Shown in pieces: positions 38,911-60,487 of a stretch of DNA of 64,000 bases. The stretch covers positions 320,001 to 384,000 of the forward strand of contig JAXHNB010000001.1 in assembly GCA_034520945.1 (NCBI GenBank), in the 5' to 3' direction. This stretch comes from Trueperaceae bacterium (GTDB taxonomy: Bacteria; Deinococcota; Deinococci; Deinococcales; Trueperaceae). Within the stretch, counting starts at the first letter, position 1. Each line of letters starts with the position of its first letter. A program made the translations under genes and the position numbers. The notes below the pieces were generated by a model. It saw only the letters and a program-made list of their open reading frames with translations, did not search any database and was not told where the DNA came from.

Positions 38911-39054
38911 CGGCGCCCCTTGATGCCCATGGGCATCAACGGGCCGAACGTGCGCATGATGCGCGCCGGAGGTAGGACGAACGCCGTGTGGGACGCATCG
39001 TCGTTTTGGAGATGGGTACGCGGGCCCCGTTGCTGCGCATGGGCATCGAGGCGG
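38911..39054. repeat. 144-bp palindromic-ended element, copy A (REPIN/MITE-like)
   Basis: Perfect palindrome TTGATGCCCATGGGCATCAA at 38920-38939 and a degenerate copy 110 bp downstream; collinear with 60344-60487. Confidence 0.85.
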
Positions 39055-39114
39055 CATGCGGAACGAACACCGCGACGCCCGCCCTGCGGGGCGGCGGTGC
39101 GCTATGCTTCGGGC

Positions 39115-39519
39115 ATGGATGATCAGGACAAGGCCTTCTACCAGGCCTGGGCGGAGTTTTTGACGTGGATGCGGGAGATCGCGGCGGAACGCGAGGGCGT
39201 CCGGTTCGAGAAGGAGGGCGACTTCCCCGACTACATCTACCGGATGGAACGGTCCTACGACCTGCCGACGACGGTGATGTCCGCCAGCCTGTCGTTGCCG
39301 GGCGGCCGGCCGGTGCTCCTCGCCTACGCCAGCCCGCGCCACACCGTGTTCAAAGAGGTGGTGCTGCACCCCTTCGACTCTCATGCCTACCGCCAGTTGG
39401 CGCTCGCCAAGGATGGCAAGGGGTTGAGCGAAGGGTCGCGCCGCTTCACCCGAGAACGGCTCGAGCACATGGCGGACGAACTGTTCGCGCTGCCGCGCGT
39501 CACGCAGGCGCCGGCCTGA
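39115..39519 (+). CDS. nqo15: NADH-quinone oxidoreductase subunit 15 (frataxin-like)
   Basis: YQAWAEFLTWMRE...GVRFEKEGDFPDYIYRMERSYDLPTT.M.ASLS...SPRH closely resembles Thermus Nqo15 as I recall it. Confidence 0.88.
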   Translation: MDDQDKAFYQAWAEFLTWMREIAAEREGVRFEKEGDFPDYIYRMERSYDLPTTVMSASLSLPGGRPVLLAYASPRHTVFKEVVLHPFDSHAYRQLALAKDGKGLSEGSRRFTRERLEHMADELFALPRVTQAPA

Positions 39520-39567
39520 AGCCGACCGTTCTGCGCTGAGCGCCGCCTCGACCCGGTCCGCGCCGCT

Positions 39568-40629
39568 TCAGGGCGCGGCCGGGTCCGCACGCGCGTCGGC
39601 CCAGCGCGAGGCCTCCAGCGCGGCGCAGAGGAATCCGCGTCCCCCGAACGCGCCGAACCACCACAACCCGCCGCGTAGCTCCTCGACCCAGGGCCGCAGG
39701 TCGCTCGTGCGGGCCCGCACGCCGGACCAGGCGTCCACCGCGTGCGCCCGGTCCATGCCCGGCACGTGCCGGGCGAGGGCGGCCCGAAGGCGGGCGGGCG
39801 CTTCGGGGTCGGTCGATTCGGGTGGGCGATGGCCGCCGCCGGCGTACGTCACGGCGCCCGCGCTGCCGCCGTACACGCCGCCGGCCAGCGGCAGCGGGAG
39901 CGCCGGACCGCCGCGCAGGGTCACGATGTCGCCGCGTAGCCGCTCCAGCGCGGGCGGGGTCCAGGCACGGCCGGCGTCGTGCACCTCGGGCGCGTCGTCG
40001 GCGCCGACGCACAACACCACCCGGTGCGCCATGGCGATCCGTGCGCCCGCGGCGTCGTGCAGCGTCCAGGGATCGGTGGGGCGTTCACGGGCGAGGCGCG
40101 CGACCCGCACGCCGGACCGAAGGGTCGCGCCGTGCGCGCGCGCCGAGGCGGACAGGGCCGCAAGCCAGGCGGCGGGGTCGATCCAGCCGCCGTCCGCCAC
40201 CCGGATCGCCCCGAGCGGCGCGTGAAACGGGGCTGGGACCGCCTCGGGCGACAGCCACGCCAGCGGGCCGGCCTCCGCTTCGGCGCGTGCGCGCCAGGCG
40301 CGGGCCTGGCGGCGATCGGTGGGCAGGCGCAGCACGCCGCTGCGGTGCGCGCCCGGCGCGCGCCCCTCGGCGCGAAGCGCCTCGGCCCAGCGCCACATGG
40401 TGGCCAGGCCGAGAAGGTCGTCGGGATGGGCGGCGCCCTTGCGGCCGCGCCAGGGGTTCAGCACCGCGAGGGGGAGCGCGGAGGCGCCGGCCGTCGCCGC
40501 GCAGCCCGGAGAGGCGGGCTCGGCGGCCTCCAGCAGCGTCGCGGGGCGGCCACGCACGGCCATGGCGCGCGCCAGCGACCGGCCGGCCACCCCGCCCCCC
40601 ACCACCACGACGTCGGTCGGGTCGGACAC
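39568..40629 (-). CDS. FAD-dependent oxidoreductase (DAO family; MnmC C-terminal-like)
   Basis: VVVGGGVAG, GASA, RG, WSGVRART.D..P and GGRGF. Confidence 0.85.
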   Translation of the reverse strand: MSDPTDVVVVGGGVAGRSLARAMAVRGRPATLLEAAEPASPGCAATAGASALPLAVLNPWRGRKGAAHPDDLLGLATMWRWAEALRAEGRAPGAHRSGVLRLPTDRRQARAWRARAEAEAGPLAWLSPEAVPAPFHAPLGAIRVADGGWIDPAAWLAALSASARAHGATLRSGVRVARLARERPTDPWTLHDAAGARIAMAHRVVLCVGADDAPEVHDAGRAWTPPALERLRGDIVTLRGGPALPLPLAGGVYGGSAGAVTYAGGGHRPPESTDPEAPARLRAALARHVPGMDRAHAVDAWSGVRARTSDLRPWVEELRGGLWWFGAFGGRGFLCAALEASRWADARADPAAP

Positions 40630-40674
40630 GACCCGAGCCTACCGCCGGCGCGCGTCCGGTAGGATGCCGGCACG

Positions 40675-41103
40675 ATGCTAGAGTTCCTGCGCGGCCTCCA
40701 CAACCTGCTTCGTTGGATCATCGTCCTGGGCGGCGTGTACGCCCTGGTGCTGATGCTCCGCGGCCTTCTCGCCCGCGCCCGCTGGACCGCCAAGGAAGGG
40801 ACGGCGGCGCGGACGTTCACCTACGCGCTGCACCTGCAACTGCTGATCGGGTTGATCCTGTACGCCATCACGCCGTTGGTGTCGGGCGGCATGGGGGCGG
40901 CGCTGAGCGGTCGGCTGCTGCTGATCGAGCATGCGGTCCTGATGATCCTGGCGGTCGTCGCGGCGCAGCTCGGGACCTCGCTGGCGCGGCGCGCCCCGCA
41001 GGACCGCACCAAGTTCGTGCGGTCCTTCACCGGCTACCTGGTGGCGATGCTGTTGATCTTCTGGTCCACGCCGTGGGGTCAGAATCTGATTCCCTGGGCC
41101 TGA
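40675..41103 (+). CDS. Four-TM membrane protein (cytochrome b-like His pattern)
   Basis: LHNLLRW, HLQLLIGL.LY, EH..LM and a terminal PW. Confidence 0.75.
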   Translation: MLEFLRGLHNLLRWIIVLGGVYALVLMLRGLLARARWTAKEGTAARTFTYALHLQLLIGLILYAITPLVSGGMGAALSGRLLLIEHAVLMILAVVAAQLGTSLARRAPQDRTKFVRSFTGYLVAMLLIFWSTPWGQNLIPWA

Positions 41104-41877
41104 GTCGAGGCGCTGCCGTCCGGCGCGCGCGCCACCAGCGTGTGCCGTTTGCCGCCCATCGGTCCGGGGCGCTTGCGAACCGTCGAGCCCGGCCGCGGCC
41201 AGCGCGCGTCGCACCTCGCCCGCCACCGTGTAGGTGACCAGGGCGCCGCCCGGCGCCAGCACCGACGCCAGGCGTGCCAGCACGCGCGGGTGCCACGCCT
41301 CGGGGTTGGCGGCGGGGCTGAAGGCGTCGTGGAAGATGGCGTGCGCCCAGCCCGGCGTCAGCAGCGCCTCCGCCGGGGGCGTGAAGGTACCTTCCTCGGC
41401 GAAGGCCTCGCCGAGCGCCACCTCGACCGTGATGTCGGGACCGAACGTCCCCTCGGCGATCCGCCACGGCCGCGGGGTGCGGGGCGCGTCCGCCAAGGCT
41501 GCGCGTGCGCCGATCCAGGCCGAGGCCAGCTCGGGGTGCGCCAGGTGCCGGCCGTATTCCAGCGCCGCCAGCACCTCGGGGGCGGGCGGACGGCGTTCCA
41601 GCGCCCGGTAGTGCAGGTCGGCGCCGTGCGTGGCGGCGGCGTCGGCGCACGCCAACAGGTTCAGGCCCGTGCCCAGGCCGATCTCCAGCACGCGCGTGTT
41701 TTGCCCCGCGGCCAGCCGCTCGGCGACGCCGCTGGCGGCGAGGAACACCTCGCGCGCCTCCTGCAGCGCGCCGTGGTGGGAGTGGTAGGTCTGGCCGGTG
41801 GCGGGGTCGAACAGGGTGCGACTGCCGTCGGCGGTCTCGACGATGCCCATGCGGGGCGGGGGCGGGTCGGTGCGCAT
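41079..41877 (-). pseudogene. mnmD: tRNA mnm5s2U34 methyltransferase MnmD (MnmC N-terminal-like), frameshifted near the 3' end
   Basis: TADGSRT, YHS.HGA..E...VF, LEIGLGTGLN, DAFSP..NPE.W and LVTY. The conserved tail VRKRPG..GKRH.L lies in the +1 frame after about 41184 and stops at 41079. Confidence 0.75.
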
Positions 41878-41912
41878 CACGGGAAGCCTAGCGTTCCGGT
41901 AGGCTCTGCACC

Positions 41913-42587
41913 ATGGGTCGGCTGTTCGAGATGATGGGCAATGCGCTGGCCGAGACCTGGCAGGCCGTGATCCCCTGGTTGGCGGGCCTGCCCGCCTGGG
42001 TGTGGGCGGTGGCGGTGACGGTGGTGCTGCTCGGGGTGGCGTTGCGGCTTCTCCTGCCGCGCACGGGGGTGTTCGGGGGCAGCCGGCCCGAGCTGTTTCT
42101 GTCCCGTGCCGAGTTGATGCCGGCCGAAGGGTCCGAGGGCGGATTCCAGTTGCTGGCCGCGTTCAGCAACCTGCACCACGAGCCGGTGCAGCTGTTGTGC
42201 ATCGCCGCGCGGGGCGGGGCCGGCGAGCTGTCGGTGGTGGACGCCACCGCCCTGGTGTCGCCGCGCCGCGCCGTGGAGCTGGAGGCCGAGCTGGCGTTGA
42301 GCGGCGGCGAGGGGGGCGTGCTGGAGTTGTACCTGTACGTCCCCGCCTCCAACGCGCGGGCGTGGCGGCTTCGTGTGCCGCTCGCCTGGGAGCCGTGGGC
42401 GCGCCGCTACAAGGCGGACACGCTGCGCCAGTCGCTGGCGCGGGTGTCGCACCTGCCCGAGCCCCCCACGCCGCCGCGCGACACGCCACCTGACACGCCA
42501 CCTGACACGCCGCCCGAGACGCCGCCCGAGACGTCGCCGGAGCCGGCGCCCGCCCGCGAAAAGCTGAACTTCCCCGACGACTTCTGA
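41913..42587 (+). CDS. Hypothetical membrane-anchored protein with a Pro-rich tail
   Basis: One TM segment; TAGGCT 7 nt before the ATG; (D/E)TPP repeats. Confidence 0.7.
   Translation: MGRLFEMMGNALAETWQAVIPWLAGLPAWVWAVAVTVVLLGVALRLLLPRTGVFGGSRPELFLSRAELMPAEGSEGGFQLLAAFSNLHHEPVQLLCIAARGGAGELSVVDATALVSPRRAVELEAELALSGGEGGVLELYLYVPASNARAWRLRVPLAWEPWARRYKADTLRQSLARVSHLPEPPTPPRDTPPDTPPDTPPETPPETSPEPAPAREKLNFPDDF
42480..42539 (+). repeat. Coding 12-bp tandem repeat x5 (DTPP/ETPP)
   Basis: GACACGCCACCT x2, GACACGCCGCCC, GAGACGCCGCCC, GAGACGTCGCCG. Confidence 0.8.
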
Positions 42588-42669
42588 GGATCCGGCCGGC
42601 CCGGCGTCGGCCGATCGGGTGCGTTCGTAGCCCGCACGTACGCGCCTGGCCCGGTAGCATCGAGGCGAT

Positions 42670-43599
42670 ATGGACGATGCATCGCGTTCCCATCCATCGC
42701 ACGTGGCGCCTTCAGCGGACCTGAGCGGCCGCGAGGCCCTGGTGACCGGCGCCAGCGGCGGGATCGGCTACCAGATGGCGCGGGGGTTGGCCCGTGCTGG
42801 CGCGCGCGTGTGGATGGCATCCCGGCCCGGCGGGCGCGGGGCGCGCGCAGCGGAGGCGATCCGGGCCGAGGTCGGTCGCGAGGATGCCGCCGTGTACGTG
42901 CCGGCGGACCTGAGCGTCCTGGCGGAGGTCCGCGACCTGGCCGAGCGGGTGGCCGCGGAGGTGCCGTGCTTGGACGTGCTGGTGAACAACGCGGGGCGGT
43001 TCGTTCAGCGGCGGACCCTCACCGCGGACGGGTTCGAGATGACCTGGGCGCTGAACCACTTGGCGCCGTTCCTGACCACCCACCTGCTGATGCGGTCGCT
43101 GCGGGCGGCGGAGGCGCCGCGGGTGATCACCACCAGTTCGAACGCCGAGCGTTCGGGTGGCGCGCTCGACCTGGACCGCGCCGCCAACGGGGTTCCGTAT
43201 AGCGCCTGGCGGGCGTACGGCTGGTCGAAGCAGGCCAACGTGCACTTCGCGCGCGAACTGGCGCGCCGCACCGAGGGCACGGGGCTGCGTAGCTACGCCT
43301 TCCATCCCGGCTTCGTACGGTCCGGCTTCGCCCGGGACGGCGGCGCGACGGGGTGGGTGGTGGCGTTGGCGCAACGCCTGTTCGGTCGCAGCGCGGAACG
43401 CGGGGCGGAGACCGGCCTGTGGTTGGCAGCGCTCGAGCCGGCCCCGGAGCCGAACGGCGGCTTTTTCGTGGACCACGCCGCGCGCACGCCGTCGCCTGCT
43501 GGCCGCGACGCGGAGATGGCGGCCGAGTTGTGGGCGCGGAGCGAGGCGTGGGTGGGGCTGCGCCCCGAGGAGCGGCTGCCTGCGCCCGATCGCCGGTGA
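42670..43599 (+). CDS. SDR family oxidoreductase (retinol dehydrogenase-like)
   Basis: VTGASGGIG, LDVLVNNAG, NHLAPFL, YGWSK and HPGFV. Confidence 0.9.
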   Translation: MDDASRSHPSHVAPSADLSGREALVTGASGGIGYQMARGLARAGARVWMASRPGGRGARAAEAIRAEVGREDAAVYVPADLSVLAEVRDLAERVAAEVPCLDVLVNNAGRFVQRRTLTADGFEMTWALNHLAPFLTTHLLMRSLRAAEAPRVITTSSNAERSGGALDLDRAANGVPYSAWRAYGWSKQANVHFARELARRTEGTGLRSYAFHPGFVRSGFARDGGATGWVVALAQRLFGRSAERGAETGLWLAALEPAPEPNGGFFVDHAARTPSPAGRDAEMAAELWARSEAWVGLRPEERLPAPDRR

Positions 43600-43654
43600 G
43601 GCGCAGGTACGTGTGCTCGCGACGCGCGGACGCGGACCTGGCTCGCGCCGACGC

Positions 43655-43849
43655 TCAGAAGGCGTCGGAGCGCGGCATGATCAGCCACAGCACCAGGTAC
43701 ACCAGCAGGCCGGTGCCGGCGCCGAGCAGGGCGACGATGAAGATCAGTCGGATGATGGTCGCGTCGATGTCGAAGTAGTGGCCGAGCCCGCCGCACACGC
43801 CGCCCAGCCACTTGTCTTGCGTCGCGCGTTCCAGTCGTTTGCGTTCCAT
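43655..43849 (-). CDS. pspC: PspC domain protein
   Basis: DKWLGGVCGGLGHYFDID.TIIR...YLVLWLIMP. Confidence 0.9.
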   Translation of the reverse strand: MERKRLERATQDKWLGGVCGGLGHYFDIDATIIRLIFIVALLGAGTGLLVYLVLWLIMPRSDAF

Positions 43850-43916
43850 GCCGCCACCATAGGCCAAGGCGGCGGCGGAAACCTCCACCCTTCGGTGGAA
43901 CGGCGGGCCGCGCGCG

Positions 43917-44258
43917 TCAGGGGTCGCCGGGCCCCTCGCGATCCTCGTCCCCCAGCCGCGCCCGGCAGTGGACGCAATGGTCCTGGTCGGGGACCCGGTG
44001 CCCGCAGGTCGGGCAGACCGTCTGCCTGCGAAGCGAGGCGCGCGCGCCTCGCTCGGTCAGCTCGTTCGCGATCAGCACGGCGTCCTCTTCGCTGACGTCG
44101 CGGATGGTGAGCTCGACGTCGCCGGCTTCGGCGTGCACCAGGTAGGCGCCCGAGCGGTAGGGCTGGGGGCCCTCGCCGGCGTTGCCGCGCGTCACGGCCT
44201 CGCGTACCTCGCGGAAGTAGGCCCACAGCGGGCCGGAGCGGATGGGATCGTCGGGCAC
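43917..44258 (-). CDS. Hypothetical protein with a C-terminal zinc ribbon
   Basis: CPTC-x9-CVHC; TAGCAT 6 nt before the GTG. Confidence 0.7.
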   Translation of the reverse strand: MPDDPIRSGPLWAYFREVREAVTRGNAGEGPQPYRSGAYLVHAEAGDVELTIRDVSEEDAVLIANELTERGARASLRRQTVCPTCGHRVPDQDHCVHCRARLGDEDREGPGDP

Positions 44259-44446
44259 GAGGTCATGCTAGCGCGTCGTGGGCCTGGGGACGGTCGTCCT
44301 GGGCGCGGGGACGGTCATTCGCGGTGCCGGGACATTCGTCCTTGGCGCCGAGCGCCGCAGCGCCCGATAGTACGACCCGAACATACGAGTTTCGTCCGGG
44401 TGCGCCCGGCGTCCTGGGCCCCGCATCCCCGAAAGGAAGGTGCGAG

Positions 44447-46078
44447 ATGCGTGATCGTTGGTTCTACGTCGTTCCCCTGATGCTGGCCTGGTTGCTGTCG
44501 TTCGGTTCCGCCGTGGCGCAGGGCGAGGAGCAGACCGCCCTGAGCGAGGAGGAGCGGGCCGAGATCGCCGAGATCTACTTCGATCGCTGCGCTGGGTGTC
44601 ACGGCGTGCTGCGCAAGGGCGCCACCGGCCCGTCCTTGGAGCCAGAAAACACCCGCCAGCGCGGGATTCCCTACCTGGAGGCCGTCATCTTCGGCGGGCT
44701 GCCCGGCGGGATGCCGGACTGGGGCCGGCAGGGGGTGCTGAGCGAGGATGAGATCTCGCAGATGGCGCGCTTCCTCACCGAGGCGCCGCCCGAGCCGCCC
44801 CAGCAGTCGCTGGAGGGCATTCTGGAGACCTGGACGGTGCACGTCCCGCCCGAGGAGCGCCCCACCGAGCCGCAGCACGACCTGGATTGGGAGAACTTCT
44901 TCGGCGTGATCCTTCGCGACATGGGGCAGGTCGCCATCGTCGACGGCGCCACCCGCGAGCTGGTGCAGCTGGTCGACACCGGCTACGCGATCCACATCCT
45001 GCGCGCCAGCAAGGATGGCCGCTACTTCACCGCGATCGGGCGGGACGGCAAGGCGTCGCTGATCGACCTGTGGTCGTCGCCGCCGGCGGTGGTGGCCGAG
45101 GTCAAGCCCTGCTTCGACGCCCGCAGCATCGAGTCCAGCAAGTACGAGGGATACGAGAACGAGTACGCCATCGTGGGCTGCTACTGGCCGCCGATGTTCG
45201 CGGTGCTCGACGGCCTCACCCTGGAGCCGCTCAAGCTGGTGTCGACCATGGGCTACGAGCGCGGCGCCGGAGACTTCGTCGAGGAGGCGCGCGTCGCCGC
45301 CATCGTCGCGTCCGAGGAGCACCCCGAGTGGGTCGTCAACGTCAAGGAGACCGGCCAGACCTGGCTGGTCGACTACAGCACCCTGGATCAGAACGGCCGT
45401 CCGATGGCGGTCACCATGATCGACACCGAGCTGTACCTGCACGACGGCGGCTGGGCCCGCGACCGCTACTTCATCGTCGCCGCCAACGCGATGGACAAGC
45501 TGATCGTGATCGACACCCGCGAGCGCGAGGTCACCGCCGAGATCGAGGCGGGCGTCACACCGCACCCTGGCCGGGGCGCCAACTGGGATCACCCCGAGCT
45601 GGGCCCGTTGTGGGCGACGGGGAACATGGGCAGTCCCGAGATGACGGTGATCGGCGCCGACCCCGAGGGGCACCCCGAGAACGCCTGGGAGGTGCAGGCG
45701 TCGGTGGAGCTGCCGTTCACCGGCACGCTGTTCAACAAGACGCACGAGAACAGCCCCTGGATCATCGTCGACTTCACCATGAGCATGAACCCCGAGGGCG
45801 CGGCGACGCTGTGCGCTATCGGCAAGGAATCGCTGGAGGCCGAGCGCTGCTGGGAGGTTCCCGGCGCGCAGGACATCGGGGCCCGCATGGTGCACATCGA
45901 GTTCGACCGGGGCGGCCAGGCGTTCTGGGTCTCGGCCTGGGCCGATATGGAGACCCCGAGCTTCATCGCCGTCTACGACGCCGAGACGCTGGAGGAGATC
46001 GATCGGATCGAGGGCGACTGGGTGCGCACCCCGACCGGCAAGTTCAACGTGTTCAACACGGCGCACGACGTGTACTGA
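44447..46078 (+). CDS. nirS: Cytochrome cd1 nitrite reductase
   Basis: Signal peptide, YFDRCAGCHGVLRKGATG (heme c), d1 domain with TGYAIHI, catalytic LHDGGW and PHPGRG, and TPTGKFNV.NT. Confidence 0.93.
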   Translation: MRDRWFYVVPLMLAWLLSFGSAVAQGEEQTALSEEERAEIAEIYFDRCAGCHGVLRKGATGPSLEPENTRQRGIPYLEAVIFGGLPGGMPDWGRQGVLSEDEISQMARFLTEAPPEPPQQSLEGILETWTVHVPPEERPTEPQHDLDWENFFGVILRDMGQVAIVDGATRELVQLVDTGYAIHILRASKDGRYFTAIGRDGKASLIDLWSSPPAVVAEVKPCFDARSIESSKYEGYENEYAIVGCYWPPMFAVLDGLTLEPLKLVSTMGYERGAGDFVEEARVAAIVASEEHPEWVVNVKETGQTWLVDYSTLDQNGRPMAVTMIDTELYLHDGGWARDRYFIVAANAMDKLIVIDTREREVTAEIEAGVTPHPGRGANWDHPELGPLWATGNMGSPEMTVIGADPEGHPENAWEVQASVELPFTGTLFNKTHENSPWIIVDFTMSMNPEGAATLCAIGKESLEAERCWEVPGAQDIGARMVHIEFDRGGQAFWVSAWADMETPSFIAVYDAETLEEIDRIEGDWVRTPTGKFNVFNTAHDVY

Positions 46079-46137
46079 CGCGCGCCGCGTCGTGCGCGCG
46101 CCGGCCGGGCCCCTGCCCGGCCGGCTATCCTCGCCCC

Positions 46138-47103
46138 ATGGATCATCCCCACCCGCCCGAACCGGAGGACGCCCACCCGCCGGCCCGCCGCATCGACGCG
46201 CTGATCGGCGACACGCCCGTGGTGAAGCTACGCTCCGTGGTCGAGGAGGACATGGCGGAGGTGTGGCTCAAGCTGGAAGGGTTCAACCCCGCCGGCAGCA
46301 TCAAGGACCGCACCGCGTTGGGCATGATCCTCGACGCCGAGGAGCGCGGCGTGCTCACGCCCGGCAGCGGCCAACGGATCGTGGAGCCCACCAGCGGGAA
46401 CACCGGCATCGGACTGGCGTTCCTGTCGGCGGTGCGGGGGTACACCTGCACGATCGTGCTGCCGGACAACATGAGCTCCGAGCGGGTGCGGACGCTGCGC
46501 GCCTACGGCGCCGAGCTGGTGTTCACGCCGGGCGAGCAGCGCATGCAGGGCGCCATCCCGCGCGCCGAAGAGCTGGTGGAGGAGACCGGCGCCTGGATGC
46601 CGAACCAGTTCGAGAACCCCGCCAACCGCGCCTACCACCACCGCGTCACCGGCCCCGAGGCGTGGGCGCAGATGCAGGGGCGGATCGACGCCTTCGTATG
46701 GGCCAGCGGCACGGGCGGCTCGATCAGCGGCATCGGCCGCTACCTGAAGGAGCAGAACCCAATGGTGCGCGTGGTGGCGGTCGAGCCGGCCCGCAGCGCC
46801 GTGATTCACGGCCGGGAGCGCGGCGCGCACGCGTTTCAGGGCATGGGGCCGGGCTTCATCCCCGGCAACCTGGACCTGGGCCTGCTGGACGACTGCAAGG
46901 ACGTCTACGAGGAGGACGCCTTCCCGCTGGCGCGGCGCCTGATGCGGGAGGAGGGGATCGCGATCGGCATGTCGTCGGGCGCCACGGTGCACGCCGCGCT
47001 CGAGGTCGCCCGCGAGCAGGGCCCCGGCAAGGTCGTGCTGGCCCTGGCCGCCGACGCCGCCGACCGCTACCTCAGCACCGAACTGTTCGAGGACCTGGGC
47101 TGA
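46138..47103 (+). CDS. cysK: Cysteine synthase A
   Basis: IGDTP, KLEGFNPAGSIKDR, EPTSGNTGIG, NQFENP and GTGG. Confidence 0.92.
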   Translation: MDHPHPPEPEDAHPPARRIDALIGDTPVVKLRSVVEEDMAEVWLKLEGFNPAGSIKDRTALGMILDAEERGVLTPGSGQRIVEPTSGNTGIGLAFLSAVRGYTCTIVLPDNMSSERVRTLRAYGAELVFTPGEQRMQGAIPRAEELVEETGAWMPNQFENPANRAYHHRVTGPEAWAQMQGRIDAFVWASGTGGSISGIGRYLKEQNPMVRVVAVEPARSAVIHGRERGAHAFQGMGPGFIPGNLDLGLLDDCKDVYEEDAFPLARRLMREEGIAIGMSSGATVHAALEVAREQGPGKVVLALAADAADRYLSTELFEDLG

Positions 47104-47193
47104 CGGCGGCGGCCGCGCCGGTGTGGCCGGTCCTGGGGGCGCGCCTCCCCCGCACGGGGTTGACGCCGCCCAGCGGCGTGCGGCGCCTGGGGA

Positions 47194-51545: not shown

Positions 51546-51575
51546 GCGTCCCCATGATCTGCAGTCCGGAGGCGC

Positions 51576-51869: not shown

Positions 51870-51974
51870 GTCAGCGCCTCCTCCTTGAGCTTTGGCTTGA
51901 GAGCACCGTAGCACGCGTTTTCGCGCGGGGCAAGTGTGCGACGACGAAAAATGGATTGTTCGACATTCACCGCC

Positions 51975-52634: not shown

Positions 52635-52738
52635 GCCCGCATGCTACCCGAGGGGCGAGCGGCCATCAGGCGTGGCCTCGGGGCGGCCGGGCCTGGTGGT
52701 GGCCGGCGGGGGCCGCGAGGCGGCGCGGACGCGCCGCG

Positions 52739-53668
52739 TCAGGGCCCGTCGCCTGCCTCTGTGGGCGTGTCCTCTGGGCGTGCGGTGGTGGCGGACGCCT
52801 CGGCCGCGACCAGCGCCCCCACCAGGAACAGCAGCAGCGCCAGGTACAACCACAACAGCAGCACCACCAGCGAGGCCACCACGCCGTACACCACGTTCAG
52901 GCGCGCCTCGTCGAACGCGTAGGGCAGCACGATTCGCATCCCCTGCAGGCCGGCCACGCTCACCAGCGCGCCGGCCGCCGCCCCGCGCCAATCGCTGGCC
53001 TGGCGCGGCAGGTACCGGAAGCACAGCGTGAACACCGCCACCGCCAACAGGATGCGCAGCGGCCCCGGGTCGGCCAGGAAGGCGGGCGGGTCCGGCAGGA
53101 CGAGCCCGACCGCCTCCAGGCGTTCGCTGGCGGCGCCCAGCACCGACCACGTCCAGCTGAGCAGCGAGCCGGCGATCAACTCCAGGATGATCACCATCCC
53201 CACGGTGGCCACCAGCAGCAGGGCCACGAATCGGGTGCGGACGAACCCGCGCGTGACGGGCACCTCGAAGATGACCTCCAGCGCACGCTGCAGCGAGGCG
53301 AAGAAGCCGCTGGACGCCCACAGCAGCACCAGCAGCGACAGCGCCGTCCGCACCAGCGTGCCTTCGGACAGTTGCGTGAGGGCGGCCTCGAAACTGCGGT
53401 CGATCAGCTCCTGCGAGTCCAGGCCCTCGGGCAGGACCGGCGTGAGCAGTTGCGCCAGCGCCTCGCGGTAGCGGGCCGCCAACTCCGGGCGCGCCCGCAG
53501 GGTCGACCCCAGCCAGCCGCCGAGCAGCAACAGCAGCGGCCCCAGCGAGAAGGCCGCGTAGTACGCCAGCGCGGCAGCCAGCATCGTCACGCGCGCGCGG
53601 CTGGCGCGCGCCACGAAGCGGCGCAACGGCGGGACCAGCCGGCGACCCAGGTCGCGCGCGGTCTTCAC
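52739..53668 (-). CDS. YihY/virulence factor BrkB family membrane protein
   Basis: AAALAYYAAFSL.P, LWASS and VYG...SLVVLLLWLY. Confidence 0.88.
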   Translation of the reverse strand: MKTARDLGRRLVPPLRRFVARASRARVTMLAAALAYYAAFSLGPLLLLLGGWLGSTLRARPELAARYREALAQLLTPVLPEGLDSQELIDRSFEAALTQLSEGTLVRTALSLLVLLWASSGFFASLQRALEVIFEVPVTRGFVRTRFVALLLVATVGMVIILELIAGSLLSWTWSVLGAASERLEAVGLVLPDPPAFLADPGPLRILLAVAVFTLCFRYLPRQASDWRGAAAGALVSVAGLQGMRIVLPYAFDEARLNVVYGVVASLVVLLLWLYLALLLFLVGALVAAEASATTARPEDTPTEAGDGP

Positions 53669-53673
53669 GGGTC

Positions 53674-54165
53674 TCAGGCGTCGTGCTTCAGGCGGCGGCG
53701 CTCCAGCAGGATGGCCGCCAGGATGCCGCCGACGGCGATGAGGGCGTGCAGCAGCACCCAGCCGGCGGCGTTGGGCTCCCAGGGGAGCTCGACGCGGAAC
53801 AGGGTGCGCTGCGACAGCAGCAGGGTGGCGAGCTGCGGCGCGATCAGCAGGGCGGGGGATAGGATCAACGCCGGCCAGCGCCAGGCGTACTCCAGGCCCA
53901 GCATGCCCAGCAGGTTGCCGGACAGGACGACCGGCATCATCACCAGCCATTCGCTGTCGCCGGCCAGCAGGCCGAGGGGCGGCGCCAACAGCGCCGCCAG
54001 GTACGCCCACGGCATGCCGCCCATGGCGAATCCGAGGTAGGCGCAGGCGAGGATCCCCACGCTGCGCAGCACCAGCGGGATCGGCGCGACGGCGAACACG
54101 AACGCGGCCAGCAGCAGGAACACGCCCGTGAATATGCTTTGCGGCGCGGGGGCCGGTCGGATCAC
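53674..54165 (-). CDS. Hypothetical integral membrane protein
   Basis: About five hydrophobic segments; TAGGAT 6 nt before the GTG. Confidence 0.7.
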   Translation of the reverse strand: MIRPAPAPQSIFTGVFLLLAAFVFAVAPIPLVLRSVGILACAYLGFAMGGMPWAYLAALLAPPLGLLAGDSEWLVMMPVVLSGNLLGMLGLEYAWRWPALILSPALLIAPQLATLLLSQRTLFRVELPWEPNAAGWVLLHALIAVGGILAAILLERRRLKHDA

Positions 54166-54209
54166 GCCCGCATCCTAGCCCGGCCGTCCGTCCGGCGCCC
54201 TGCGCGCGT

Positions 54210-57098
54210 TCATGCCAGCTCCGTCGCTCGGGCGGCGTCCTCGTCGCGGATCCCCAGGCGCGCAGCGATGGCCGGCACCTTGCGGAGGAAGGCGCCGGTG
54301 GAGGAGTCCGGGTTGGCGGCCACCTGCTCGGGCGTGCCGGTCGCGACCAGCTCGCCGCCGTACGCGCCGCCGGCCGGCCCGAGGTCCACGATCCAGTCGG
54401 AGGTCTTGATCACGTCCATGTCGTGCTCGATCACCAGCACGGTGTTGCTGCCCTCCACCAGGCGGTGCAGCACGTTCAGGAGTTTCTGCACGTCGTCGAA
54501 GTGCAGCCCGGTGGTGGGCTCGTCCAGGATGTACAGCGTGCGGCCGGTGGAGCGCTTGCCCAGCTCGGAGGCCAGCTTGACGCGCTGCGCCTCGCCGCCG
54601 GAGAGGGTGGGGCTGGGCTGGCCGATCTTGGCGTACTCCAGGCCGACGTCCTTCATGAGCTGCAGCTTGCGCGCGATGGAGGGGATGTTCTCGAAGAAGC
54701 CGAGGCCCTCCTCGACCGTCATCTCCAGCACGTCGCTGATCGACCTGCCGCGGATCTTGACCTCGAGCGTCTCGCGGTTGTAGCGGGCGCCCTTGCACAC
54801 CTCGCACGGCACGTACACGTCCGGCAGGAAGTACATCTCGACCTTGACGGTGCCGTCGCCCTTGCAGGCCTCGCAGCGCCCGCCCTTGACGTTGAAGCTG
54901 AAGCGGCCCGGCTTGTAGCCCCGCTTGCGCGCCTCCGGCGCCCGCGCGAACAGGTCGCGGATCTCGGTGAAGATCCCGGTGTAGGTGGCGGGGTTGCTGC
55001 GCGGCGTGCGGCCGATGGGGCTCTGGTCGATCTCGATCACCTTGTCGACGTGCTCGGTGCCGAGGATCTTGTCGTGCGCGCCGGGGCTGGCCTTGGCGCG
55101 GTACAGCTGCTTGGCCATCGACTTGTGCAGGATCTCGTGCACCAGCGTGCTCTTGCCCGAGCCCGACGCGCCGGTGATGCAGGTCAGGGTGCCGAGGGGC
55201 AACTCGACGTCCAGGTTCTTCAGGTTGTGCTCCCGCGCGTTCTTGATGGTCAGCCGCTTGCCGGTGCCGTCCCGTCGCGTGGTGGGGGTCGCGATTTCGC
55301 GGTCGCCGCGCAGGTAGGCGGCGGTGAGGCTGGTCTCGTGCTGCGCCAACTCGTCGGGCGTGCCGCTGGCGACGACCTCGCCGCCGTACACCCCGGCGCC
55401 GGGCCCGAGGTCGACGATCCAGTCGGCGGCGCGCATGGTGTCCTCGTCGTGCTCGACCACGATCAGGGTGTTGCCCAGGTCGCGCAGGTTCTTCAGGGTG
55501 CGCAACAGCCGCGCGTTGTCGCGCGGGTGCAGCCCGATCGAGGGCTCGTCCAGCACGTACAGCACGCCGGTCAGGCCGCTGCCGACCTGCGTCGCCAGGC
55601 GGATGCGCTGCGCCTCGCCGCCCGAGAGGGTGTTGGCGCTGCGGTCCAGGCTCAAGTAGTCGAGCCCGACGTCCTCCAGGAACCCCAGCCGGTTGGACAC
55701 CTCCCGCATGATCGGCTTGGCGACCTCGCCGGCGGCGCCCGCCAGGTTCAGCCCGCCGAAGTACGCCGCGGCGTCCAGCACCGTCATCCCGCTGACCTCC
55801 GCGATGTTGCGGCCGGCCACGGTGACGGCCAGCACCTCGCGCTTGTAGCGCGTCCCCCCGCAATGCCCGCAGGGGACCAGGCTCATGAACGCCTCCAACC
55901 GTTCGCGGGCGGTCTCGCTGCCCGCCTCCGCCAGGCGCCGATCCAGATTGGGGATGACCCCCTCGAAGTCGGCCTTGAAGCGCATGGTCTCCTTGCCGCC
56001 CCGCCGGTACACCACCTCGATCGGCTCCTGACTGCCGTACAGGATCGTCTGCTGCGCCTCCTCGGGCAGGTCCTTCCAGCGCGCGTCCAGCTCGAAGCCC
56101 AGGTTGTCGGCCAGCGCGCGAAGGCGGTCCCAGTAGAACACCTTGCTGCCGCCGTCCCGGGCGCCGGTCCACGGCACGATCGCGCCGCGCGCCAACGACT
56201 TGCTGGTGTCCGGCACCACCAGGTCCGGGTCGAACTGCTGCAGGAACCCCAGCCCGGAACAGTGCGGGCAGGCGCCGTAGGGGCTGTTGAAGCTGAACAC
56301 GCGCGGCTCGAGCTCCTCGAGGAAGGTGCCGTGCTCGGGGCAGGCGAACCGCTCGCTGAACAGCTCGTCCACCTCGCGGTCCGGCAGCCACACCCGCATC
56401 AGGCCGTCGCCGCGCGCCAGCGCCAACTCGGTGGACTCGGCCAGCCGGGAGCGGTCCTCCTCCTTGATGACGACCCGGTCGACCACCACGTCGATGTCGT
56501 GCTTCTCGTAGCGTTCCAGTTCGACCTTGAGCGCCTCGTCCAGCGTCTGCACCACGCCGTCGACCCGCACGCGGGCGAAGCCTTCCTTCTTGAGCTCCTC
56601 GAACAGCTTCTTGTACTCGCCCTTGCGGCGCCGCACTACCGGCGCCAGCAGCATGGCGCGGCCGTCGGAATAGCGCTCCAGCATGCGATCCACGATCTCG
56701 CTGGGCGACTGGCGGGTGATCTCGCGGCCGCACTCGGGGCAGTGCGGCGTGCCCGCCCGGGCGAACAGCAGGCGCAGGTAGTCGTGAATCTCGGTGACGG
56801 TGCCGACGGTGCTGCGCGGGTTGTGGCTGGTGGTCTTCTGGTCGATGCTGATGGCGGGGCTGAGGCCCAGGATGGCGTCGACGTCGGGCTTGTCCATCAC
56901 CCCCAGGAACTGCCGCGCGTACGCGGACAGACTCTCGACGTAGCGCCGTTGCCCTTCGGCGTAGATGGTGTCGAAGGCCAGGGTGCTTTTGCCCGAGCCG
57001 GACACGCCGGTGAACACGATGAACGCGTTGCGCGGCAGCGTGATGTCGACGTCCTTGAGGTTGTGTTCACGGGCGCCACGGATGGTGAGGTCCTGCAA
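54210..57098 (-). CDS. uvrA: Excinuclease ABC subunit A
   Basis: [23 protein letters not shown], two LSGGEAQR signatures and zinc fingers; GGAGG RBS before the TTG. Confidence 0.98.
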
Positions 57099-57367
57099 GG
57101 GAGGTGCCTCCTTCGTGCCGGAGCACGAGATATTGCGTCAAGAACGCGCGTATGGGCGTGATGCCCCTCCGCGCGCGAACGGGCTAGTCTATCAGAGGAA
57201 CGCACCCGGGCGCACGGCCGGACGTAGGGGCCGCAGCCGCGCGCCGCGGCGGTCTGCTAGAATCCGCCCGATCAAGGCGCACGGCCACTGCGCTCATGGC
57301 GCGCCGTGCAGCGCGACGCGGCCGCGCGGACCCGGGCCGCTCGCGCGCACCAAGGAGGCACATTCCC

Positions 57368-57676
57368 ATGCCACGCATCGACCCCACCCTGGCCCTGTAC
57401 GCCCTCGCCCTCGCCATCGGCGGCGCCCTGTTCGTGCTGTTGTTCTGGGCGATCGCCGCCATCAACCTCCAGACCGGCAGCGGGCTGATCGCGGATCTGG
57501 GCCTGAGCGGCCTGTGGCAGACGCTGTTCTACGCCTACCCGTTCGTGACGTTCTTGGCCGTGGTCGGCGGGATCGTCGCCTTCCTGGTGGACCGCTACCA
57601 GGCGGCGCTCGGCTTCGCGGGCCTGCCCGTGGCCGGGGTGGCGGTCTACTACCTGGCGCTCACCCTCTGGTACTGA
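57368..57676 (+). CDS. Small hypothetical membrane protein
   Basis: Three TM segments; AAGGAGG RBS. Confidence 0.7.
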   Translation: MPRIDPTLALYALALAIGGALFVLLFWAIAAINLQTGSGLIADLGLSGLWQTLFYAYPFVTFLAVVGGIVAFLVDRYQAALGFAGLPVAGVAVYYLALTLWY

Positions 57677-57747
57677 TTCGCGGGGGTCGAGCGCGCCGCA
57701 GGTCCTGAGCTGCCGGCTCGAGGCCCCTGCGTGTCCGAGTCCTACAC

Positions 57748-57787
57748 AACGCGCTGCGCGGCCGGGTCGCGGTCCGCGCAGCGCGTT
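57748..57787. terminator. 14-bp-stem hairpin between convergent genes
   Basis: AACGCGCTGCGCGG...CCGCGCAGCGCGTT. Confidence 0.55.
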
Positions 57788-57831
57788 CGTGCGTCGTGCG
57801 TGGGGAGCTGCCCCGTGCACGGGGGTTCAGG

Positions 57832-58743
57832 TCACGGAATGTCGACGCGTGCCACGTTGAACGGAAGCTCCGGCTCGCCGCCCTGCCGGTCGAACTGCGA
57901 GTTCACCACCAGCAGGTTGCCGTCGGCGATGGCGGCGGTGGTGGGGAACTGGAACAGGTCGCTGCTGATGGGGTCTCCGGCCGGGTCGACGCTGTCACCG
58001 GACTCGGAGAGCGTCAAGCGGTCCACCTGCCCGAACTGGTTGCGCACCACGTACAGCGTGTCGCCGTCGCGCACCAAGCCGTCGCCGGCCGTCACCGGCT
58101 CGGCGCTGCTCTCCACCTGGCTGACCTGCAGCGTGCCGAGATCGACCCGGTACAGGTTGCCGTTGCCGGAGTGCACGATCACCAGCGCGTTTCCGTCCGG
58201 GCTGACCACGATGCCGTTGGCGTTGAACTGCTGATCATAGGGGAACACCGTGTCTTCGAACGACATGAAGCTGGTCAGCTCGCTCAACATGTTGCCCGCG
58301 CCGATGCGGAACAGCTCCGGGCGGGCCGAGTCGGTCACGTACACGGCGTCGTTCACGAAGGTGAGGTCGTTCAGGAAGGTCGCCTCCGCCTCGGGCGTGG
58401 CGTACTCCTCGATCAGTTCGCCGCTGTCGGTGTCGTACACGAACACGTTGCCGGTCGGGCCGCCGGCCACCCACAGGCGACCGTACGGGTCGACCTCCAA
58501 ACCGATCGCGGTCGGTGCGGCGCCCTCGGCCAGGACACTCACCTCGCCGCTCTGCACGTCGCCCTGGTAGATGGTGCCGCTGGTGGTGCTGCCGACATAG
58601 AAGGTGCTGCCGTCCTCGCTCACGGCGATCCCTTCGGGGAAGACCTGGTCGCCTGGAAGTTCGTACCTGTCGGGCTGAGCTACGACGGCTCCGAACAGAG
58701 CCACCACGAGTGTGACGAGTACGGTGCGTGCGAAATCGGTCAT
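57832..58743 (-). CDS. Secreted SMP-30/gluconolactonase-like beta-propeller protein
   Basis: Signal peptide, FPEGIA, FLNDL, YVTDS, NGIV, GDGL and FPTT; GGAGGGAG upstream. Confidence 0.85.
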   Translation of the reverse strand: MTDFARTVLVTLVVALFGAVVAQPDRYELPGDQVFPEGIAVSEDGSTFYVGSTTSGTIYQGDVQSGEVSVLAEGAAPTAIGLEVDPYGRLWVAGGPTGNVFVYDTDSGELIEEYATPEAEATFLNDLTFVNDAVYVTDSARPELFRIGAGNMLSELTSFMSFEDTVFPYDQQFNANGIVVSPDGNALVIVHSGNGNLYRVDLGTLQVSQVESSAEPVTAGDGLVRDGDTLYVVRNQFGQVDRLTLSESGDSVDPAGDPISSDLFQFPTTAAIADGNLLVVNSQFDRQGGEPELPFNVARVDIP

Positions 58744-58820
58744 GGTGTCACTCCCTCCGCCCTTCACCGTAGGACGGCAGACCCGCACGATTCGTGTTCC
58801 GGCCATCAGTGCCGTGCCCG

Positions 58821-60200
58821 TCACGGGTCGTTCAGGTCGACGGGGATGACGGTGCGCCCCACGGCCGCGATGCGGTCCAGGCCCGGCCGGCGGCCCGCGG
58901 GCTGCGCCTTCACGCCGAGCGCATCGGCCACCGCCGAGACGCGGAACACGGTCGGCAGGCCGTAGGCCGTGGGCACGATCACGCCCAAGCGTTGCAGGGC
59001 CCGCAGGTAGCGGCCCGCCGTACGGCGCTGCGCCACGCCGGCTGCGACCAGGTGCTGGATGCCGACGTAGGGCTGGCGCGCCAGCAGCTGCGCCAGGCGC
59101 GGGGCGCCGATACGGCGCCGGCCCAGCAGGTCGCGGCCGTCGGGGCCCTCCAGTCGTGCGAGCACCGCCCGGTACGCCCGCACGTAGGCGCACCAGCGGG
59201 CCCACGTCGCGTCCACGGCGCTGCGGACGAGCTCGAAGAACGTACGGACCCACGCGTCCCACGATCCGGTCCGGCCGACGGCCCGCAGCGCCTGCACGCA
59301 TGCCGCCTCCCGCGCGCGCAGTTCGTGCGCCAGACCGATGCGCGCCGCGGCGCCACCCGGCACGCGCCGGAGGGCGCGATCGACGGCCAGGACCGCCATG
59401 CGCCCGTTGGCTTGCCGGAAGGGGTGCAACAGCCGCATCCGTCCGTACACGACCGCTGCGCGCAGCAACGGGTCCGGCGGCGGCGCGTGCGGGGCCAGCG
59501 CGGCGGCGTGCGCGGGCGTCTCGTCGGGGGCGCCGCCGTGCGCGTCCGCCGGCTCGCGGGGGCCGCCCGGATCGTAGGGTTCGTCGGGGGCGGCCCAGGT
59601 GGCCAGCGCCGCCAGCTGGGCACGCAGGTAGGTGCGGCCGGCCGGCGGGCGGCGGAGCACCTTCGATCGTTGGATGGGACCCTGGTACCCGCGCGTGTGC
59701 CGCAGGCGCGTACCCGGACCGCAGGCGCGAGACGCCAGCGCCTCCAGTCCCGCGGGGCCGAGCGCCGTTCGTAGGCCGCCCGGTCCGGACGTGTTCGGGA
59801 TCGGCGCCACGGATCCGCCTCGTTCCGCCGTGTACCAGGCGTGAACGTCGACCAAGCTGGCCTCGAGGGAGCGTTCCGGCAGGGCGCGGTCGCCCATCGC
59901 GGCGCGCCACAGGACCGTGTCCACCTCGAACGGGAACCCGTCCAGCGCGCAGGCGTGCACGGTGTCGAGCCAGCCCTGCAGCCGCCAGAACCCTTCGGCG
60001 TCCGGCGTCCTGGGCGCCCCGTCGTCCACGAGCGTTGGCTGCAACGCCAGGTTCACCCGCAGGTCGGCGGCGTGCGGGAGCAGGTCGCGCAGCGCGTCGG
60101 GGCCGGTCGGCAGGTCCGGCATCTCTCGTTTCCGTCGGTCCTGATCCAGCCTGCGGGCAGTGCCCAGATCTTCGTCGTGCTGCGTTCCATCGTGCGCCAT
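58821..60200 (-). CDS. Divergent Fic family protein with a C-terminal winged helix
   Basis: DPLLRAA...LHPFRQANGR, W..W..F and QPY....LV..G...RTA..YL..L...G. The start is uncertain (alternative 60122). Confidence 0.75.
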   Translation of the reverse strand: MAHDGTQHDEDLGTARRLDQDRRKREMPDLPTGPDALRDLLPHAADLRVNLALQPTLVDDGAPRTPDAEGFWRLQGWLDTVHACALDGFPFEVDTVLWRAAMGDRALPERSLEASLVDVHAWYTAERGGSVAPIPNTSGPGGLRTALGPAGLEALASRACGPGTRLRHTRGYQGPIQRSKVLRRPPAGRTYLRAQLAALATWAAPDEPYDPGGPREPADAHGGAPDETPAHAAALAPHAPPPDPLLRAAVVYGRMRLLHPFRQANGRMAVLAVDRALRRVPGGAAARIGLAHELRAREAACVQALRAVGRTGSWDAWVRTFFELVRSAVDATWARWCAYVRAYRAVLARLEGPDGRDLLGRRRIGAPRLAQLLARQPYVGIQHLVAAGVAQRRTAGRYLRALQRLGVIVPTAYGLPTVFRVSAVADALGVKAQPAGRRPGLDRIAAVGRTVIPVDLNDP

Positions 60201-60343
60201 GCCGCATGATCCGTTGCGAGACGCGGCGTCGTGGGCGGCTTCGGTTCGGCGGCCGAGCAGGCGTCGGCGCAGGCCCGCACCCCCGCAGCATGCACCGCCC
60301 GGTCCCCCTTCATACGCCCGGTGCGGGGCGCGGGGATTCGTTG

Positions 60344-60487
60344 CGGAGCCCCTCGATGCCCATGGGCATCAACGGGCCCAACGTGCGCATGTCGACAATC
60401 GCGGTGCGTGAGGGACGGGGCTCCTCCCCCGATCCGGCCCGAGGTTGGGTATTTCGGCGTCGTTGATGCCCATGGGCATCAAGGCGG
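60344..60487. repeat. 144-bp palindromic-ended element, copy B (REPIN/MITE-like)
   Basis: TCGATGCCCATGGGCATCAA and TTGATGCCCATGGGCATCAA with centres at 60361 and 60471, 110 bp apart. Confidence 0.85.

Follow-up and report, generated by a model that had tools for sequence, protein, structure and literature searches.

A probable small family of REP-doublet-like palindromic repeats, with a core found in both orientations, in part of one bacterial genus

Two similar elements, copies A and B, lie in the 64,000-nt stretch of Trueperaceae DNA that we analysed (the window), and they probably belong to a small, non-autonomous family of palindromic repeats, resembling REP doublets or MITEs, that is carried by part of one genus. 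Among the options raised by the original prediction, a non-autonomous mobile element or REP doublet is the one that our data support, as the element occurs in several copies that lie between genes, are found in a single lineage and vary in their presence at orthologous loci. Its mobility would be a deduction from comparisons of loci between genomes. As we read it, the family is selfish or semi-domesticated DNA of a known type, and not a new regulatory device.

Results

Nested palindromes flank a 54-nt core

Copies A (38911-39054) and B (60344-60487) are present as predicted and contain no indels relative to each other, with MAFFT gaps confined to the outer flanks. Their left blocks are identical at 45 of 48 nt (94% over 48 nt by BLAST) and their right blocks at 24 of 27 (read from the pairwise alignment). 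These limits nevertheless fall short of the element, since homology continues for about 25 nt past each end. When semi-conserved outer arms of roughly this length are added to both sides of the model span (38918-39051 in A, 60351-60484 in B), copy A extends from approximately 38893 to 39076 and copy B from approximately 60326 to 60509, both on the + strand. Between orthologues, homology that preserves register reaches some 20-30 nt beyond the model span, and the whole element measures ~190 bp.

Each element carries two stem-loop palindromes of 20-22 bp, termed P1, which are mutually inverted and have no strand of their own. The left P1 of copy A (TTGATGCCCATGGGCATCAA, 38920-38939) has a complete stem (8/8) and the loop CATG, and its right partner (TTGCTGCGCATGGGCATCGA, 39030-39049) is degenerate (stem 5/8). 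In copy B, the left P1 (60353-60372) was assigned by a 16-mer match and a stem-loop check, and the right P1 (60463-60482) is perfect (8/8). The 16-mer GATGCCCATGGGCATC occurs at 38922, 39032 (with two mismatches), 60355 and 60465, and thus the palindrome centres are 110 bp apart in A and B alike, in agreement with the CATG-to-CATG spacing reported initially. With up to three mismatches allowed, this 16-mer has six matches in the window compared to 0.45 expected, a number reached by none of 100 shuffles. Across the copies compared, the left P1 and the reverse-complemented right P1 agree at 14-21 of 22 positions, the loop is CATG at 28 of 34 sites, and the mean stem is 6.0/8.

A second pair of sites, P2, lies ~24 nt inward of each P1 and consists either of TGCGCA within the palindrome ACGTGCGCACGT or of the variant TGGGTA. 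The left P2 of copy A is TGCGCA inside arm I (AACGTGCGCATG, 38951-38956), and the corresponding site in B occupies 60384-60389. On the right, both copies have the predicted TGGGTA hexamer, the arm II variant, at 39013-39018 (A) and 60446-60451 (B). These sites, again unstranded, bound a non-palindromic core of 54 nt that is found in either orientation: that of B (60391-60444, + strand) is in the alpha orientation, with its left half conserved (...TCGACAATCGCGGTGCGT-GAGGG-ACGG) and its right half less constrained, and that of A (38958-39011, - strand) is in the flipped, or beta, orientation.

The core is found in two orientations

The two cores had been described as having no visible similarity, which is true only when they are compared in the same orientation (15/54 identical). 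When one core is reverse-complemented, 27 of 54 positions match, compared to a shuffle null of 15.6 +/- 3.2 with a maximum of 26, and the best window for the flip in copy A spans model positions 42-93. The effect is larger for another copy, C6, which matches the core of B at 13/54 positions directly and at 35/54 when flipped (null 15.6 +/- 3.2); flipping positions 41-94 lifts identity over the whole element from 85 to 107 of 134. All 17 cores align without gaps once they are re-oriented. The ‘variable core’ therefore appears to be largely one sequence turned around, and the proposal that selection acts on geometry, made because the core seemed to vary freely at a constant length, gives way to that of a conserved sequence present in two orientations, whose length stays constant because inversion preserves length.

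This arrangement recalls a programmed switch, in which a site-specific recombinase acting at the inner inverted sites would invert the 54-bp core to produce phase variation. The order of arms I and II is constant while core orientation differs (A and C6 versus B and the copy at C385920), orientation differs between genomes G000 (which holds A and B) and G004 at both loci common to them, and a 5-nt loop within the core is read both ways, as CAGGG or CCCTG. Nevertheless, we consider such a switch very unlikely. To our knowledge, 54 bp is far below the length of known protein-mediated invertible segments. In contrast to invertons, there is no promoter inside the element, no recombinase is encoded by the 12 flanking genes scanned, and differences in orientation are confined to comparisons between paralogues or between species. 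In all four orthologue sets checked among those shared by G004, G005 and G007, the members have the same orientation, and so flips are rare evolutionary events. Contigs from a related strain carry copy B intact; excised or inverted forms with good support were absent from the covered parts of these contigs, which drop rare variants, and none of the joints listed for them changes strand at a core. Two joints, 4372->9916 and 4377->4464, were treated as repeat artefacts, with sides of 20-33 letters that fall within repeated P1. The flip probably arose instead by recombination, or by template-switching during replication, between the inverted P2 or P1 repeats.

Copy number and distribution

The family is not limited to the two copies in the window, as genome G000 carries six. 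Genome-wide, it has 12 P1 16-mer sites at no more than one mismatch (eight of them perfect), of which 11 are intergenic and paired, and the six P1 pairs are spaced by 110 bp in five cases and by 109 bp in the sixth. A covariance-model census of 11 genomes of the same genus found six loci in G000, eight in G004, five in G007 and two in G005, and none in the remaining seven. One further copy in G004 is cut off at a contig end, bringing that genome to nine, such that carrier genomes hold 2-9 copies each. Of 20 complete copies, 17 have a model span of 134 nt and the others spans of 133, 135 and 136 nt, and the 110-bp spacing is retained in copies from G007 and G004 that have a different P1 sequence.

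The family is restricted to part of one genus and to a few related salt-loving bacteria. The covariance model found no match in a sample of 150 further genomes from the order. A loose pattern scan of a wider genome collection (14 fixed bases), whose matches came from scattered taxa, yielded no family member among the 80 matched loci examined, and its two best matches proved to be an unrelated actinobacterial hairpin repeat. The exact P1 20-mer was found at nine metagenome loci, none of which is a family member, and plasmid and phage collections gave no match.

A segment of 47.5 kb holds four of the six G000 copies (P ~1.6e-4 by simulation), a clustering that is consistent with local spread. 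We rejected the idea that these are origin-proximal partition or organising sites, given that dnaA and parB are at ~35 kb on contig C1 and the copies are at 359-406 kb. The junction of the C1 end with the C6 start, which would merge two locus clusters, found no match in G005.

Presence, absence and replacement at orthologous loci

Comparison of orthologous loci for empty sites, as had been proposed, revealed a present/absent pattern with clean empty sites. The gap between the P450 gene and nqo15, which holds copy A, is 248 bp in G000 compared to 14 bp in G002 and ~50 bp in G003, both of which are empty. Conversely, at five loci filled in G004, G005 or G007, G000 has neither an element nor a remnant of one. 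Deletion could explain this pattern of presence and absence as readily as insertion. Moreover, five sets of copies at orthologous loci shared among G004, G005 and G007 are mutual best matches, suggesting that most copies are old residents. Orthologous elements form indel-free islands in otherwise unalignable intergenic DNA; flanks were compared by ungapped bins, as gap-permissive global alignments were too noisy.

Replacement of one element by another is indicated at some loci. Copies G004_C42 and G005_C1 have flanks that are 92-93% identical, but the elements match at only 55 of 134 positions and differ in P1 and in arm type, such that the subfamily at this locus differs between close relatives. 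Similarly, the G000 copy at C385920 is closer to its neighbour B (109/134) than to its positional orthologue G004_C169 (80/134), a locus whose flanks have no match in G007 or G005.

We propose that the elements spread and overwrite one another either by means of a trans-acting enzyme, other than a RAYT, that recognises the P1 stem-loops, or by recombination or gene conversion between copies. We also considered a more elaborate possibility, wherein the nested palindromes would be sites of a RAYT-independent recombination or homing system that copies elements locally, overwrites residents at fixed intergenic landing pads and flips the core between TGCGCA and TGGGTA. Overwriting at landing pads would account for the different subfamilies found at one locus in genomes that are 92-93% identical there. 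We regard this reading as unlikely, and if it were true, the family would represent a new class of repeat in bacteria, self-maintaining and served by an enzyme of its own.

Genomic context and folding

All six G000 copies are intergenic and lie among unrelated housekeeping genes. The 11 loci placed in G000 coordinates, the only ones used for these counts because a simple GC3 gene caller was unreliable in the other genomes, comprise seven between tandem genes (one of these, at C2:207.7 kb, assigned partly by eye), four between convergent genes and none between divergent genes, and every one adjoins at least one gene 3' end.

Such positions bear on the earlier suggestion of a protein-binding, DNA-looping module, in which a dimeric protein would occupy both P1 sites, separated by 110 bp or about 10.5 helical turns, and the core would be a site for an architectural protein. 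The near-constant spacing (110 bp in all measured pairs except the one at 109), the equally constant span and the eight perfect P1 16-mers in G000 fit this arrangement, as does the fact that P1 changes symmetrically between species in the manner of dimer half-sites. However, symmetric change is equally expected of hairpins and of transposase sites. The element is located away from promoters, no sigma-70-like promoter overlaps it, the absence of divergent loci and the presence of four convergent ones are contrary to a looping role, and the neighbouring genes share no theme. Close relatives differ in the presence of the element and can have two P1 types at one locus. Looping thus seems to us distinctly improbable.

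The proximity to gene 3' ends fits a possible role for the host at the RNA level. P1 stem-loops in 3' UTRs, or a long hairpin formed between the two P1 sites, might shield upstream mRNAs from 3' exonucleases or aid termination, as proposed for REPs, and the family would then be kept for that role and not by its own spread. In favor of this hypothesis, sequences fold far better than their shuffles in all 12 folds (z -3.0 to -7.3; none of 200 shuffles equal), the empty orthologous sites of G000 bear ordinary GC-rich hairpins at the corresponding positions, and the elements persist as indel-free islands between orthologues. Yet no T-tract terminator was found at the elements, their orientation relative to the upstream gene is inconsistent, both strands fold about equally well compared to their own shuffles, and close relatives lack the element at the same loci.

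Compensatory pairing likewise does not extend beyond P1. Watson-Crick pairs within a copy exceed those between copies for P1 (16.3/20 versus 13.8; none of 5000 permutations reaches the observed value), but not for the arms (10.3/18 versus 10.1) or the core (8.1/27 versus 9.6). Specific pairing is limited to the terminal palindromes, and the core is excluded. Rfam gave no match at gathering score in the window, and none at the elements at E <= 0.1 (eight loci). With no Rfam match, promoter or terminator, strands that fold alike, and arm and core pairing at chance, the predicted structured RNA with a variable cassette is not upheld. We hold the broader role in host RNA to be unlikely. If the elements benefit the host at all, they would do so in the way of REP-like hairpins at transcript 3' ends.

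A small protein gene that starts at an ATG in one P1 and stops at a TGA in the other would have 36 codons at the 110-bp spacing, and in copy B this frame is indeed open for 36 codons on both strands. This peptide reading was rejected, and its probability is negligible, as the 17 copies have no consistent ORF: start, stop and length vary, with stops at codons 11 to 36, some frames remain open past the element, four copies have no CATG at the position scanned on one strand or both, and one G000 copy has the 109-bp spacing. Substitutions between B and the copy at C385920 (counted by eye) number 8, 6 and 6 at codon positions 1, 2 and 3.

Search for a mobilising enzyme or parent element

The window contains no cognate transposase, as noted at the outset, and none was found in the four carrier genomes. 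Y1_Tnp/RAYT (PF01797) gave no match in any of the four at E <= 0.1, in assemblies that are 83-97% complete and so do not prove absence; a control search with the same profile gave matches in 7 of 14 named reference genomes. The only trace of TnpB in G000 is a domain fragment of 23 positions. Neither G000 nor G004, nor any of the nine metagenome loci with the exact 20-mer, yielded a parent IS flanked by P1 on both sides. P1 sites in G000, and those in G004 at no more than one mismatch, all belong to 110-bp pairs except for one chance match in a coding region in each genome. Copies of IS elements are often missing from assemblies of this kind.

Discussion

Most work on REP and REPIN repeats has concerned Proteobacteria, in which these repeats are linked to RAYT transposases. 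The family described here resembles REPINs as these are portrayed in the account of P. fluorescens SBW25 (Bertels & Rainey 2011, PMC3116915), wherein two invariant palindrome-bearing ends lie inverted at a fixed distance (GI, 71 bp; GII, 110 bp; the shared value of 110 bp is a coincidence), the less conserved spacer is constrained chiefly in its length, and the elements are extragenic. REPIN populations are further described as long-lived, vertically inherited and able to persist in RAYT-less genomes (bioRxiv 10.1101/2021.07.10.451892). The differences are several. No RAYT was found in the four carrier genomes, copy number is 2-9 per genome rather than the tens to hundreds of REPINs, and the lineage is of Deinococcota type rather than proteobacterial. 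The GTAG tag is present at 0 of 34 P1 sites, and the spacer is not a maintained hairpin, its arms and core pairing no better within copies than between them. Finally, the core is non-palindromic and found in both orientations, and there is a second, nested palindrome in P2.

A second comparison is offered by CGTC-tagged REPs, whose dimers are characterised by Di Nocera et al. 2013 (PMC3733652) as head-to-head palindromes with spacers of 20-100 bp that are conserved in sequence or length. Stem-loops are present in some of those spacers, small families are known, and the class is stated to ‘apparently lack[s] a dedicated transposase’ (PMC3733652). Our family shares the head-to-head arrangement, the length-conserved spacer and the lack of a dedicated transposase in our searches. 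CGTC, CCTC or TGTC is found inconsistently, at the outer end of 12 of 34 P1 sites, overlapping the first stem positions. As described there, the stems of CGTC-tagged REPs have 8-9 bp and start with two A.T pairs, and the loop has 4-5 nt; here the stem averages 6.0/8, and the first two pairs are both A.T at 9 of 34 sites. Neither Deinococcus nor Thermus occurs in the text of PMC3733652.

Like MITEs, the elements have inverted repeats around a short non-coding body, are intergenic and are present or absent between relatives. Unlike MITEs, their inverted repeats are self-palindromic and subterminal, and our searches found no parent IS with matching ends. No target-site duplication is definable, as the outer limits are fuzzy, distant empty sites are unalignable, and the sole close pair of filled and empty sites meets a run of 100 N in G007. 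The mosaic SNRs of D. radiodurans (PMC1978522), compared by description only, are also small, intergenic, species-variable mosaic repeats from the same phylum-level lineage; our model found nothing in the 150 genomes sampled from the order. A search for literature linking Truepera with REPs or MITEs found no paper in the collection searched.

We conclude that the most probable identity of these elements is a REP-doublet-like or MITE-like repeat family, which offers no pointer to a new regulatory mechanism. For annotation, it accounts for contig breaks and unannotated intergenic sequence in the carrier genomes. The family is very small, belongs to a Deinococcota-type lineage and comes with no RAYT that we could find, and because the copies are so few, every one can be traced across species. 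This tracing shows persistence at orthologous sites, clean gains or losses, replacement of subfamilies and inversion of an inner segment. The family is therefore a tractable case for understanding how palindromic repeats without a transposase persist and homogenise.

Six copies of one element in the genome

The repeat at positions 38911-39054 (copy A) and 60344-60487 (copy B) of the window is real and was correctly observed. A BLAST comparison of the two left blocks returned the 45 of 48 identities claimed in the original prediction, and alignment of the right blocks likewise gave 24 of 27. In A, the 16-mer GATGCCCATGGGCATC is found at positions 38922 and 39032, and in B at 60355 and 60465, which places the CATG centers 110 bp apart in both copies, as had been described. 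With three or fewer mismatches, GATGCCCATGGGCATC is matched six times in the window compared to 0.45 times expected, a count that was reached in none of 100 shuffles.

The window corresponds to C1:320001-384000 of this genome. In the full assembly (3.47 Mb, 10 contigs, 71% G+C), GATGCCCATGGGCATC occurs eight times exactly and 12 times with at most one mismatch. Six element pairs take up 11 of these 12 sites, and we rejected the twelfth as a chance match within coding sequence. The pairs are located at C1:358922 (copy A, whose right site carries two mismatches), C1:380355 (copy B), C1:385920, C1:406382 (spacing 109 bp, with one mismatch in the right site), C6:33503 and C9:51598, where C1, C6 and C9 denote contigs. 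Three of the copies are on the opposite strand. Four of the six fall inside 47.5 kb, a clustering for which simulation gives a P of about 1.6e-4. The cluster resides 320-370 kb from dnaA and parB, and a reading as origin-proximal sites was therefore rejected.

Anatomy and folding

Each end of the element carries a larger CATG-centered dyad (P1), with a second site approximately 24 nt inward. This inner hexamer is TGCGCA, found inside ACGTGCGCA(C/T)G, in arm I and TGGGTA in arm II, and the combinations (I,I), (I,II) and (II,II) all occur across elements. Beyond each P1, a further ~25 nt (the outer arm) are semi-conserved, which brings the full element to approximately 190 bp. Of 20 complete copies, 17 have a span of 134 nt under our covariance model, and the distance between CATG centers is also 110 bp in the copies measured in two same-genus genomes, G007 and G004.

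Each of the two single strands of the element folds far better than shuffled sequences (z between -3.0 and -7.3), as is expected for inverted repeats at the DNA level. Specific pairing with the partner in the same copy is confined to P1; the arms and core exhibit none, and covariation outside P1 is absent among 21 copies. In the consensus fold, only the two distant P1 sites and parts of the arms are paired.

A core that is inverted relative to the arms

The original prediction described a variable core of fixed length. The constant length stands, but the dissimilarity is only apparent. The 54-nt cores of A, C6, C9 and a G004 copy (G004_C18a) match the B-type core only once they are reverse-complemented: identities out of 54 rise from 15 to 27 for A, from 13 to 35 for C6, from 14 to 28 for C9 and from 12 to 25 for G004_C18a, compared to a shuffle null of 15.6 +/- 3.2 (maximum 26). 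None of these cores is self-complementary. The best flip window, model positions 41-94, is bounded exactly by the two inner hexamers, and flipping it raises the identity of C6 to B from 85 to 107 of 134. Since the order of arms I and II is unchanged in A, B, C6 and the copy at C1:385920, it is the core that is inverted relative to the arms, and this inversion accounts for a constant length together with an apparent lack of similarity. After re-orientation, 17 of 17 cores align without gaps. Their left halves are conserved and end in GCGT-(5 nt)-GACGG, where the 5-nt loop is found as CAGGG or CCCTG. Core orientation is opposite between this genome and G004 at both of their two shared loci, which could reflect either in-situ inversion or replacement.

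Distribution, inheritance and replacement

Exact palindrome pairs are found in none of 40 relatives. At the orthologous P450-nqo15 locus, G004 nevertheless contains a clear relative of the element, cut by a contig end, which shares arm I and the core and has a different P1 (TTGTCGCGCATGCGCAACAA). We therefore built a covariance model, based on eight copies. Among 11 genomes of the genus, it locates six loci in this genome, eight in G004, five in G007, two in G005 and zero in the remaining seven; there are no matches in 150 sampled genomes from elsewhere in the order. Because the carriers other than this genome have fragmented assemblies, with several copies falling at the end of a contig or within a scaffold gap, the copy counts are lower bounds.

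The P450-nqo15 gap is 14 bp in the same-genus genome G002, about 50 bp in G003 and 248 bp here. In another, G008, this intergenic region holds a different insert, which is rich in inverted repeats and about 215 bp long (about 2072-2287 of extracted stretch L024). It lacks P1 and is not matched by the model, and has the short motifs GAGGGCATTC, CCGTACC/GGTACGG and AGAGGGACC in common with the arm II and core of the element; it may be a rearranged relative of the family.

When the flanks of G004, G005 and G007 copies were mapped onto this genome, five sets of copies proved to occupy orthologous loci in two or three species. Where these map cleanly, this genome has short intergenic DNA and no element remnant. 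The orthologous copies are mutual best matches, indicating that most copies descend vertically. The flanks of G004 and G007 copies show 86-91% identity, and the elements agree at 97-99 of 134 positions with no net indel; homology that preserves register extends over the element and a further 20-30 nt and drops to background beyond.

At C2:207.7 kb, the flanks of G004 and G005 are 92-93% identical, yet their elements agree at only 55 of 134 positions and differ in both P1 type and arm type. The copy at C1:385920 matches its neighbor B at 109 of 134 positions versus 80 of 134 for its positional orthologue, G004_C169. These sequence comparisons suggest that resident copies are sometimes replaced or converted. 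Separately, three tandem 15-bp units (GCGCGAGGTCGTGGC) lie in the right flank of one G005 copy (G005_C1, stretch L075), immediately next to the element.

Genomic context

All six copies in this genome are intergenic, and are flanked by P450 and Nqo15, Fic-like and FMN reductase, YjeF_N and unknown, LacI and UppS, astacin and epimerase, or FTHFS and P-type ATPase genes. Adding the five loci occupied in relatives, all in coordinates of this genome, the neighboring genes are tandem at seven of 11 loci, convergent at four and divergent at none. Copies A and B have neither a sigma-70-like promoter nor an intrinsic terminator, and the element has no match in Rfam.

The sequence GCTATGCT directly upstream of the nqo15 start codon (window 38867-39114 compared with G002 and G003, stretches L026 and L029) is kept in this genome, G002 and G008, with or without an element, and may be a leader or promoter-proximal signal belonging to nqo15 itself. 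Outside the window, at C1:~407714-407798 (L072:2837-2921, + strand), there is a near-threshold, full-length match to the c-di-GMP-II riboswitch model RF01786 (50.4 bits, E 1.5e-8; the gathering score is 53.5). Shortly before the window begins, C1:289346-290534 and C1:309635-310823 give identical BLAST hits to one G004/G007 flank, and thus 1.2 kb or more of sequence appears to be duplicated about 20.3 kb apart.

Relationship to known repeat kinds

The original prediction that the window lacks a cognate transposase was borne out, and searches of the four carrier genomes likewise gave no Y1/RAYT transposase; this genome has only a TnpB-domain fragment. No gene is bracketed by a P1 pair in this genome, in G004 or in nine metagenome loci with the 20-mer, and plasmid and phage collections gave no match. 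A GTAG tag is present at 0 of 34 P1 sites, and CGTC-like tags are inconsistent (12 of 34).

A metagenome contig (L217:555-819) carries, in 48% G+C DNA, a tandem array of ~24-bp units, each with GATGCCCATGGGCATC-like palindromes; its context is unrelated to that of the family. Two contigs of an Actinomycetota MAG (L093:391-520 and L126:391-520) hold a hairpin repeat of CGTGATCATGCGCAGATGGCCCCTC and its complement, with an extra half-copy ~60 nt downstream, that is unrelated to the family.

The closest known elements in anatomy are REP doublets, which are described as long-lived and vertically inherited (PMC3116915; bioRxiv 2021.07.10.451892); CGTC-type REP dimers are described as having no dedicated transposase (PMC3733652). 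The family differs from REPINs in the lack of a RAYT, a GTAG tag and a whole-element hairpin and in its low abundance, and from MITEs in the lack of a parent IS. We therefore classify it as a variant of the general REP-doublet/MITE kind and as a member of neither. It is a small repeat family with palindromic ends and a flippable core, restricted to one lineage.
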